UHGV virus genome: UHGV-0071483 | Length of the DNA: 16,668 bases | Source of the DNA: a virus | Direction: 5' to 3' (one strand) | Part shown: in pieces, positions 11,260-12,192 of the stretch | Layout: the number at the start of each line of letters is the position of its first letter | Numbering within the stretch: position 1 is the stretch's first letter | Notes under the pieces: generated by a model | Databases searched by the model: none | Told to the model about the DNA's origin: nothing | Seen by the model: only the letters and a program-made list of their open reading frames with translations | Made by a program: the position numbers and the translations under genes

Positions 11260-11279
11260 TACTGTATTTATGAACAGTG
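11260..11279. promoter_or_regulatory. Consensus LexA (SOS) box TACTGTATTTATGAACAGTG just upstream of a candidate promoter (-35 TTGATA 11285-11290, -10 TAAGTT 11308-11313) for the antirepressor gene
   Basis: Perfect CTGT-N8-ACAG with AT-rich spacer, read directly. Confidence 0.7.
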
Positions 11280-11376
11280 TATCCTTGATAACTATTAAAA
11301 ATCGCAGTAAGTTCATCCTGCATCAACGAAAAGGGAGTGCAGTCCCGCTCGTGGATAAAAATTTGTGGAGAAACCA

Positions 11377-12192
11377 ATGAATCAGTTGCTTGTAATTGAT
11401 GGCGTTTCTGTGCGCCAGTACTTCGAATCTAACTACTGTCTTAACGACCTTCAGAAAGCTGCTCTTCTTGCCGCTGGTGAGAATCGCTCCTCCCGTTCGC
11501 TGGAAGTTCACGAGTTTATGCGTCGTCCTGAAACGAAGGCTCTTGTGGAATTATTGGAAGAAGAAACTACGGGAGATTCCCGTAGTATTCCTGTCATCAC
11601 CATTCAGGGGCGCAATGGTGGGACGTATGTCTGTAAAGAGCTGGTCTATGCATATGCAATGTGGATCAGCCCGGCATTCAGCTTAAAAGTGATACGTACT
11701 TTTGATGCGCTTCATAATTCATCACCAGAAGAAACCACATCCGACAAAATTAAATCCGGGGTCATTCTGCTTGAATCAGCAGCAAAGACTCTAAATCTGT
11801 CAAACTCCTCGAAACTTGGTGCATACCAGAAATTATCAAAGGTAGCTGGTCTTCCTGAACTTATGCCGATCTATGCCATTGATGCACCTGCTGATGCGCC
11901 AGATGGTTCAAGCCGCCCTACGCTGTCGCTGAGTGCACTGCTGAAGCAGTATGGTATCCGCCTGACGGCTAATCAGGCATATCACCAGATGGCGAAGCTG
12001 GGGATCGTTGAACAACGCGAACGATACAGCCGTACCGCAATTAACAACATTAAAAAATTCTGGTCGCTGACGGCGAAAGGCTGCATGTTCGGCAAGAACA
12101 TCACCAGTCCCGCAAATCCGCGCGAGACGCAGCCGCATTTCTTCGAATCCCGATTCCCTGAGCTGTTAAAGCTGCTCGATACCGTTCATTGA
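11377..12192 (+). CDS. Antirepressor with KilA-N domain and Ant/KilAC-like C-terminal domain (271 aa from ATG 11377; the track ORF starts at GTG 11365)
   Basis: KilA-N signature around YVCKELVYAYAMWISPAFSLKV; SD GTGGAG 6 nt upstream of ATG 11377. Confidence 0.65.
   Translation: MNQLLVIDGVSVRQYFESNYCLNDLQKAALLAAGENRSSRSLEVHEFMRRPETKALVELLEEETTGDSRSIPVITIQGRNGGTYVCKELVYAYAMWISPAFSLKVIRTFDALHNSSPEETTSDKIKSGVILLESAAKTLNLSNSSKLGAYQKLSKVAGLPELMPIYAIDAPADAPDGSSRPTLSLSALLKQYGIRLTANQAYHQMAKLGIVEQRERYSRTAINNIKKFWSLTAKGCMFGKNITSPANPRETQPHFFESRFPELLKLLDTVH

Follow-up and report, generated by a model that had tools for sequence, protein, structure and literature searches.

What role does a host LexA operator have in a prophage whose own repressor carries the sequence features of self-cleavage? 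This question is raised by the virus genome UHGV-0071483, in which a LexA box lies at positions 11260-11279, between rusA and a gene for a KilA-N domain protein. The window, by which the whole analysed stretch of 16,668 nucleotides (nt) is meant, corresponds to the early and nin region of a lambdoid prophage, with SfV, SfIV, SfII, mEp460, ST64B, and several Shiga toxin (Stx) 2 phages as its kin, and it also encodes a cI repressor with a peptidase domain. An earlier, sequence-only reading took the KilA-N protein for an antirepressor and proposed two routes of induction, one through this protein and one through cleavage of cI. A LexA-dependent input beside cI is still plausible, given the strong box and a conserved promoter, while an antirepressor is considered an unlikely route here. 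Instead, the box is held, with moderate confidence, to be an operator for host LexA that gates a cI-independent promoter in the nin region, from which transcription would pass through the KilA-N and DUF968 genes and probably reach the gene for the Q antiterminator.

The LexA box and the adjacent promoter

The description of the box as perfect holds for its CTGT-N8-ACAG core, which is exact, but not for the full 20-mer TACTGTATTTATGAACAGTG, which agrees with the consensus TACTGTATATATATACAGTA at 16 of 20 positions. Exact cores occur three times in the window, where 0.22 would be expected, and none of 200 shuffles gave three. The core at 7271, which has poor flanks (11 of 20 positions, below 10 bits) and lies about 250 base pairs (bp) upstream of the isrK promoter, is probably due to chance. 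When scored with a symmetrised weight matrix that was made from 24 Escherichia coli LexA boxes and whose scores are approximate, the box at 11260 reaches 21.6 bits. The median of the training sites is 20.7 bits, whereas the best site per shuffled window has a mean of 10.2 bits and a 95th percentile of 14.2; a local shuffle test gives p=0.001. Two other high-scoring boxes, at 6041 and at 13, are found in the same 16.7 kb, where shuffles predict none above about 14 bits. Since the box at 6041, which is internal to cI, is also kept in all seven cI homologues compared, the LexA sites of this phage lineage appear to be selected and not accidental.

A candidate promoter immediately downstream of the box was already part of the sequence-only reading, and it is borne out. 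The end of the box is separated by 5 bp from the -35 hexamer of this promoter, P1, which places the box at about -41 to -60. With a weighted sigma-70 score of 10.7, P1 is in the top 0.01 % of window positions and is the best candidate nearby; by comparison, the isrK promoter reaches 11.6 and the putative pR 8.5, and a stricter 9-of-12 promoter scan missed P1. In an alignment of the gap between rusA and the KilA-N gene, hexamers of the form TTGnnn/TAnnnT, 17 bp apart, are found at homologous positions across genera, with a variable spacer between them. The pair is TTGCTA/TAATGT in Kluyvera, TTGAAA/TAATGT in Leclercia, and TTGCAT/TATTTT in both Cedecea and the metagenome contig L098. This pattern supports a KilA-N promoter of their own in the lineages with a long gap. 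By contrast, in phiSTEC1575-Stx2k, SfV, Stx2c phages, Proteus, and Morganella, the KilA-N gene begins 17-21 bp after rusA, with neither promoter nor box. A second candidate in the window, P3, has its -10 hexamer within the box and would provide the classical geometry of LexA occlusion; in the variant found in E. coli AZ187, its -35 hexamer is TTGAAT.

The leader that P1 would produce contains a small hairpin that is conserved as a structure. Its TGCAG loop is invariant, while the stems vary, with 16 distinct ones across 18 loci that represent about 14 genera (combined p=3e-9). It lies 20-35 nt 5′ of the KilA-N Shine-Dalgarno (SD) sequence and is present too in the short-gap variants, in which rusA and the gene adjoin. 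It matches no Rfam family. RNAalifold gave no structure for it, as the changing length of the loop shifts the register, and a stem test on each sequence was used instead.

The gene order downstream of the box extends beyond the window. Homologues of the KilA-N protein with 72-88 % identity were fetched from Citrobacter, Kluyvera, Cedecea, Pantoea, Leclercia, Kosakonia, and metagenomes, and in all eight of these other loci rusA is followed by a gap of 85-109 bp and then by the KilA-N gene, DUF968, and Q, with Q proteins from different families. In the window, there is no strong terminator on the plus strand between 11377 and 13955. Read-through to Q is thus probable, as the three genes are only 1 and 13 nt apart with no strong terminator between them. 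The presence of Q in the same apparent operon had not been part of the earlier reading, and it makes a second route without any antirepressor possible. The region past Q (13936-14087) contains the next strong terminator (14063-14084) with a T-run, together with an istR-like Rfam match of 26 bits that is below threshold; it is presumably the pR′/tR′ region, the target of Q.

SOS control of the KilA-N promoter is plausible. In a lysogen, LexA bound next to the -35 hexamer of P1 would hold rightward transcription low, and it would also cover the -10 hexamer of P3. Following DNA damage, RecA-stimulated cleavage of LexA would release the promoter. The transcript, which would start at about 11320 and carry the conserved leader hairpin, would then code for the KilA-N protein, the DUF968 HNH-like protein, and probably Q. 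Because these three genes are so tightly packed, the second SOS input is most likely direct and reversible LexA-gated transcription of the nin region and Q, in parallel to the autocleavage of cI.

Sites that resemble the box are also found at this promoter in more distant phages. Out of 24 diverged KilA-N upstream regions scored with the weight matrix, 13 hold a LexA-like palindrome that beats its own shuffles; the combined Fisher p of 2e-14 is overstated, as the loci are related and not independent. The sites form three clusters by their distance from the ATG: about -115 in Kluyvera, Kosakonia, and Leclercia (the box in the window is at -117); -89 to -92 in Cedecea (-89), L098, Buttiauxella, Rahnella, and Serratia (15.0 bits); and -71 to -83 in Erwinia (17.1 bits at -75 and 8.0 bits at -71) and Edwardsiella (19.3 bits at -83). 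Significant sites outside these clusters occur in Raoultella (-157) and Rosenbergiella (-129). The pattern suggests that the KilA-N promoter has kept or acquired SOS-type operators more than once, and that only the one in E. coli and Shigella is at full strength. Within E. coli, the junction that bears the box is present in 186 of 5,426 complete genomes, at 204 places, and it also occurs in phages SfIV and PhiR49_1. Strains of the O104:H4 outbreak carry it in a prophage that is not an Stx phage and whose Q differs. The 99-bp segment is not an independent mobile unit, as it lies between rusA and the KilA-N gene at all 204 places.

Several observations weigh against this reading. Its chief weakness is the position of the box, which is upstream of the -35 hexamer and not over the core promoter, an unusual arrangement for LexA repression; the only promoter that the box overlaps, P3, is weak. 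In addition, a box with both half-sites intact is confined to the E. coli/Shigella lineage, and its retention in SfIV and in the E. coli and Shigella variants says little, because these copies are 91-100 % identical. The exact core is absent from the 350 bp upstream of all 80 cross-species KilA-N homologues examined; this was at first read as a lack of conservation, a conclusion that was dropped once the weight matrix revealed the exact-core criterion to be too strict. Most of the diverged sites have a perfect right half and a left CTGT that lacks its C, and in relatives with 72-80 % identity the promoter is kept while LexA-like sites are weak or absent (p=0.2 in Citrobacter). The matrix itself is approximate, as mentioned above, and three weak terminator-like hairpins lie within DUF968, past which read-through to Q is inferred. 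The folding data discussed below would also allow the box to serve a leftward RNA instead. Finally, searches of the literature on KilA-N and LexA, on DUF968 and LexA, on SfIV, and on O104:H4 transcriptomes found no report of binding, expression, or a transcription start for this locus.

The KilA-N protein and other explanations of the box

The KilA-N open reading frame (ORF) begins with an ATG, with an in-frame GTG at 11365, and its product matches Pfam KilA-N at residues 10-114 (E=1e-15, above the gathering score) and no other Pfam domain. Its first 110 or so residues are 37 % identical to KilA of phage P1. A usable AlphaFold model (mean predicted local distance difference test score of 77) gives the N-terminal domain the predicted APSES/KilA-N DNA-binding fold, which is shared with Mbp1 and Bqt4. 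In P1 KilA, the C-terminal domain is of the KilAC/ANT type; that of the window protein differs from it, and Foldseek and phmmer searches of this domain against the PDB returned nothing significant. PHROG labels the protein as a "transcriptional regulator", and PADLOC and NCBIfam scans added no function to it. Among the best 120 of 2,727 homologues there is no characterised relative; they have generic names, mostly "KilA-N domain-containing protein". The gene is a mosaic when box-bearing and box-less forms (L001:9429-10238) are compared, with 97-100 % identity at residues 181-271 and 23-50 % at residues 1-90. Since the first 90 residues diverge while the C-terminus is near-identical, the N-terminal domain seems to travel with the promoter and leader as a unit, which hints at autoregulation.

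Could this protein still be a LexA-controlled antirepressor, acting either on the cI of the window, where it would be redundant with autocleavage, or on the repressor of a co-resident prophage? Such antirepressors are documented in the Gifsy prophages (GfoA, GftA, and GfhA; PMC3121763) and in coliphage 186 (Tum; PMC7067206), and Fels-1, whose repressor is 52 % identical to the window cI, combines a cleavable CI with an antirepressor against Gifsy-2 (PMC3121763). Moreover, KilA-N, Bro-N, and Rha N-terminal domains are often fused to domains annotated as antirepressors, and the C-terminal part of the window protein (residues 97-267, approximately) recurs behind Bro-N and Rha-like N-termini in phages of Klebsiella, Pseudomonas, Paenibacillus, and Ruminococcus. 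However, the protein has no ANT or KilAC domain and no match to solved antirepressors in PDB sequences or folds, and at 271 residues with a DNA-binding fold it differs from the antirepressors of Gifsy and Fels-1, which are described as small, with no DNA binding seen for GftA (PMC3121763). It does not co-vary with immunity either. The identical box module, in which the KilA-N proteins are 99.3-99.6 % identical, accompanies a repressor of the window type in AZ187 and O104:H4, but one that is just 21-23 % identical to the window cI in SfIV and in strain 2013C-3342; conversely, phiSTEC1575 has a cI with 99.1 % identity next to a box-less KilA-N gene whose product is 69 % identical. Thus, the KilA-N module is not tied to an immunity type. 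All repressors in this comparison retain GDSM and Ala-Gly and consequently would need no antirepressor for inducibility, and nothing points to a promiscuous one. In addition, the many phages in which the gene closely follows rusA, without its own promoter or box, would express it only after derepression. The antirepressor label of the sequence-only reading is for these reasons unlikely to be correct, and the protein most likely binds DNA to regulate lytic development and is not a dedicated antirepressor of this cI. The box might also mainly control an RNA of about 70-110 nt that runs leftward toward rusA and ends at the hairpin at 11210-11189, with control of KilA-N secondary or absent, although the two functions are not mutually exclusive. 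Only the minus strand has a terminator-like element with a T-run, a palindrome at the 3′ end of rusA whose folding energy is -13.5 kcal/mol (z=-3.7). As a cI operator this palindrome was rejected, given its 6-nt spacing compared with the 7 nt of TTGCG-N5-xGCAA and pairing that extends into the flanks. The minus strand folds better than the plus strand (-34.3 kcal/mol, z=-5.6, 0 of 200 shuffles, versus -28.1, z=-3.1; for an 80-nt version, -27.3 versus -20.8), the G.U pairs of the middle hairpin would be C.A mismatches on the plus strand, and the substitutions of AZ187 preserve the hairpin on the minus strand only. Minus-strand promoter candidates are available (TTGATG-17-GATTTT, with a score of 8.1, and TTATCA-19-TACAGT, with its -10 in the box), and the roughly 60 bp that hold terminator, hairpin, and box are absent from the shorter gaps of other genera. 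By contrast, these promoters are mediocre, one having a 19-bp spacing and the other a GATTTT -10, the terminator stem is weakened in AZ187, no Rfam family matches, the segment is never found apart from rusA and the KilA-N gene (204 of 204 places), and genera without it still have LexA-like sites at the KilA-N promoter. A box that mainly serves such an RNA is considered improbable.

LexA itself may not be the only candidate reader of the operator. The gene just upstream of rusA codes for a LexA-like protein of about 108 residues, with the LexA DNA-binding domain but no peptidase domain, and in relatives where it is intact this protein might be the main reader, which would make the operator a device for phage-autonomous timing and not for SOS. 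The intact form aligns to residues 2-69 of E. coli LexA (E=7e-16), with a recognition helix that is near-identical (NAAVEHLRAL compared with NAAEEHLKAL) and an "AGE" in register with the LexA cleavage site. A copy of the gene is seen at L001:8697-9023, most of the loci fetched from other genera (among L087-L098) have it directly ahead of rusA, and the order of this gene, rusA, gap, and KilA-N is kept in seven of the eight other loci. LexA-like sites occur at 8 of 10 loci with the gene, but also at 6 of 15 without it, the strongest ones outside E. coli included, and no strict link between site and gene was found. In the window, codon 9 of the gene is TAG, a change from CAG that is private to the window among five sequences, and the box is nonetheless intact. 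LexA dimerises through its C-terminal domain, which the phage protein lacks. As the sites occur regardless of this gene, host LexA is the simpler reader, and a main role for the phage protein is very improbable. It might finally be argued that the box binds LexA without regulatory effect, or that it is a neutral gain of one lineage, with KilA-N expressed only through the delayed-early transcript from pR. The full box is indeed limited to one closely related lineage, it is outside the core promoter, and the full-length box-less junction of the phiSTEC1575 type is commoner in E. coli (358 versus 186 genomes). Nevertheless, there are three high-scoring boxes in one window, this one adjoins a conserved promoter at which LexA-like sites recur at homologous offsets, and the module is near-unchanged in 186 genomes; an inert box is accordingly given very little likelihood. 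The gating of a rightward promoter by host LexA is therefore retained as the preferred explanation.

The cI repressor and other elements of the window

The S24 domain of cI, with its GDSM and VKRL motifs, had been recognised from the sequence alone and is confirmed here by a Pfam match (Peptidase_S24, residues 104-218, E=6.5e-19) that follows a helix-turn-helix (HTH) region (HTH_3/HTH_26, residues 3-64). In an alignment, the catalytic residues of UmuD (GDSM and VKKL) pair with Ser144 (GDSM) and Lys181 (VKRL) of cI. Ala99-Gly100 lies in the linker (...VSASAGNG...), a motif common to all seven homologues. In its sequence, cI thus has every feature of a self-cleaving S24 repressor. Likely operators of the form TTGCG-N5-xGCAA are found at 5483-5497 and 5507-5521 (two at the left operator, OL) and at 6290-6304 (at least one at the right operator, OR), and the putative pR reads TTGCGC-17-TAATAT at 6311/6334.

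The second LexA box of the window lies within the codons for the cI linker. It has been retained, at 22-25 bits and at the same position, in seven of seven homologues down to 50 % protein identity: in addition to the window (100 %), ST64B (83 %), Klebsiella Kp4873-4 (71 %), Citrobacter phiNP (69 %), Eeyore (68 %), Fels-1 (52 %), and Cronobacter ENT47670 (50 %). These homologues were taken from diverged phage records, as a search of viral contigs yielded only copies with 99-100 % identity, which are uninformative. TACTGTA and CAGT are invariant in the box, whereas the linker on either side is hypervariable, as DNA and as protein. Five of the seven genes have, 17 nt upstream on their sense strand, a -35-like TTTAC(C/A), although this is confounded by the fact that the same bases code for L-F-T. 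The box could belong to an internal leftward promoter, TTTAC(C/A)-17-TACTGT, that LexA would occlude. According to published ST64B transcriptomes, peroxide and nitric-oxide shock strongly induce the non-coding RNA STnc1310 and two genes downstream of CI (PMC7067206). This would be compatible with a leftward transcript out of the cI region that responds to damage. No description of a LexA operator inside cI was found in the literature searched.

The coordinates of these and other features are collected in Table 1. The third LexA box precedes an ORF that matches SocA_Panacea in Pfam (E=6.5e-18) and SocA_antitoxin in NCBIfam (99.5 bits, under the cut-off), and positions 13-1094, with the box, the SocA-like gene, and the following ORF, may constitute an SOS-controlled toxin-antitoxin moron at the left end of the prophage. 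A further strong LexA box, TACTGTAAAAATAAACAGTG (22.6 bits), is found in the related prophage of E. coli AZ187 (L084:10381-10400), at the point where a DNA methyltransferase gene begins, past Q. In the literature found, the gene for the LexA-like protein is named only as a family occurring in 15 Stx phages (PMC8136144), and beyond this listing no description of a peptidase-less LexA homologue was found in the literature searched.

Table 1. Positions of the features discussed, in the coordinates of the window
Feature	Positions	Strand	Details
Third LexA box	13-32		TACTGTTTGCACATTCAGTG; 17.4 bits; 2 bp upstream of ORF 35-523
SocA/Panacea-domain gene	35-523		Left end of the window
Unannotated ORF	546-1094		182 residues; next after the SocA/Panacea gene
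yfdP/Q/R-like genes			Leftward early operon, between the SocA/Panacea gene and cI
cI	5577-6269	minus	HTH and S24 domains
Second LexA box	6041-6060		TACTGTTTTTACATACAGTA; 25.2 bits; inside cI linker codons N-T-V-C-K-N-S-I
cro	6367-6627		
YmfL/CII-like gene	6620-7171		
isrK/C4/Rha module	7528-8319		isrK and C4 RNAs, then the Rha gene
isrK RNA	7528-7604		Rfam, 67 bits
C4 antisense RNA	7629-7716		Rfam, 83.6 bits
Rha-family gene	7774-8319		181 residues
Replication gene	8537-9355		Followed by PerC and Dam
LexA-DNA-binding-domain-only gene	10496-10822	plus	Pfam LexA_DNA_bind, E=4e-14
rusA	10819-11214	plus	Pfam RusA; upstream neighbour of the KilA-N gene
Candidate leftward structured RNA	11183-11295	minus	Three hairpins, terminator and U-tail; overlaps or abuts the box; antisense to the rusA 3′ end
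Palindrome	11189-11210		CGAGTTGC-N6-GCAACTCG; rusA 3′ end; T-run on the minus strand alone; called as a minus-strand terminator
rusA/KilA-N gap			162 bp in the window
P3 promoter candidate	11238-11265	plus	TTGGGT-16-TACTGT; score 5.7; -10 within the LexA box
LexA box	11260-11279		TACTGTATTTATGAACAGTG; exact CTGT-N8-ACAG core
P1 promoter candidate	11285-11290 (-35), 11308-11313 (-10)	plus	TTGATA, 17-bp spacer, TAAGTT; putative start at about 11320
Leader hairpin	11333-11346	plus	GGGA-GTGCAG-TCCC; about 30 nt 5′ of the ATG
KilA-N gene	11377-12192	plus	271 residues; SD GGAG at 11367-11370
DUF968/HNH-like gene	12194-13189	plus	Pfam DUF968, E=3e-80, and HNHc_6; begins 1 nt past the KilA-N stop
Q antiterminator gene	13203-13955	plus	Pfam Antiterm, E=1e-53; begins 13 nt past the DUF968 stop
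Lysis genes			Downstream of Q

If an antirepressor is to be sought in the window, the Rha gene under isrK/C4 control is, by analogy, a better candidate than the KilA-N gene. A strong promoter (TTGATT-17-TACACT at 7493) lies ahead of isrK, and the weight-matrix scan of the window found no good LexA box associated with the module. A 383-residue ORF at 7168-8319, called "peptidase" or "Rha family" in related records, has a middle part, with a Pfam Phage_ASH match at residues 117-213, that coincides with the isrK and C4 RNA genes. This ORF is probably over-called, and the true Rha coding sequence likely starts at the ATG at 7774. The module resembles immI of P1 (c4 antisense RNA, icd, and ant) and isrK-orf45-anrP of Gifsy-1 (PMC4825925), in which an RNA-controlled module of the isrK type has been shown to induce the prophage (PMC4825925). 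In contrast to the KilA-N locus, it sits away from the box at 11260.

The several LexA-linked elements could also be parts of one arrangement, in which LexA would form a second and reversible layer of the lysis-lysogeny decision. The operator inside cI may gate an internal promoter for leftward transcription into the early-left operon, KilA-N, DUF968, and Q could be transcribed from a LexA-gated promoter without inactivation of cI, and the LexA DNA-binding domain of the phage could re-occupy these operators, and the SOS boxes of the host, after host LexA has been destroyed. An arrangement that comprises all of these elements is a tentative proposal and rather unlikely.

Comparison with known systems and significance

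The layout of the window resembles that of the Gifsy prophages of Salmonella. In Gifsy-1, -2, and -3, an SOS operon consists of a LexA box, a dinI homologue, and the antirepressor gene gfoA, gftA, or gfhA (Lemire et al. 2011, PMC3121763); the box is in the nin region, with a terminator-like palindrome ahead of it, and drives the operon (PMC3121763). The window likewise has its LexA box after the replication gene and ahead of Q, with a palindrome before it and an apparent rightward operon after it. In Gifsy-1, transcription of antQ starts 1.6 kb upstream of the gene (PMC4825925). The Gifsy operon answers DNA damage without involvement of the phage repressor, through a LexA input that is reversible in principle, and the same is proposed here. 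However, the two systems differ in what the operon encodes and in the repressor beside it. Induction of Gifsy needs the LexA-controlled antirepressor and not direct cleavage of the repressor (PMC3121763), and its operon codes for a DinI homologue and a small antirepressor, of which GftA showed no DNA binding; by contrast, the operon of the window codes for KilA-N, DUF968, and Q, and its cI has the complete S24 apparatus. The description that fits the locus best is thus that of an SOS-gated nin operon of the Gifsy kind, in a phage with a repressor of the cleavable type as well.

Other prophages share only some of these traits. Induction of Fels-1 is reported to be independent of lexA3, that is, to proceed by direct cleavage (PMC3121763), which gives indirect support to RecA-stimulated autocleavage of the window cI. 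The Fels-1 repressor also shares the internal LexA box with the window cI. Fels-1 is also a precedent for the combination of a self-cleaving repressor with an antirepressor, FsoA, that acts on another prophage. Nevertheless, fsoA is in the early-left operon, and its product is a homologue of GftA that is unrelated to KilA-N proteins.

AntC of N15 and Ant of SPC32H are LexA-repressed antirepressors. As with these two and with Tum of coliphage 186, a host LexA operator on a phage promoter would turn an SOS signal into induction in the window. In contrast to the window, Tum, AntC, and Ant are the sole route of induction for repressors that are not cleaved, and none of them is known to be part of a KilA-N/DUF968/Q operon.

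The most unexpected by-product of this analysis is the conserved LexA operator within cI. With regard to the box at 11260, if LexA gates a promoter that reads into Q, the late genes, which downstream of Q in related phages include toxin or other cargo, could answer mild or transient damage without the destruction of cI. The module is present in the O104:H4 outbreak lineage and in the Shigella serotype-converting phage SfIV. If true, this would give the switch, which is commonly regarded as all-or-none, an input that is reversible and graded, and it would widen the Gifsy paradigm to phages whose repressor is cleavable as well.

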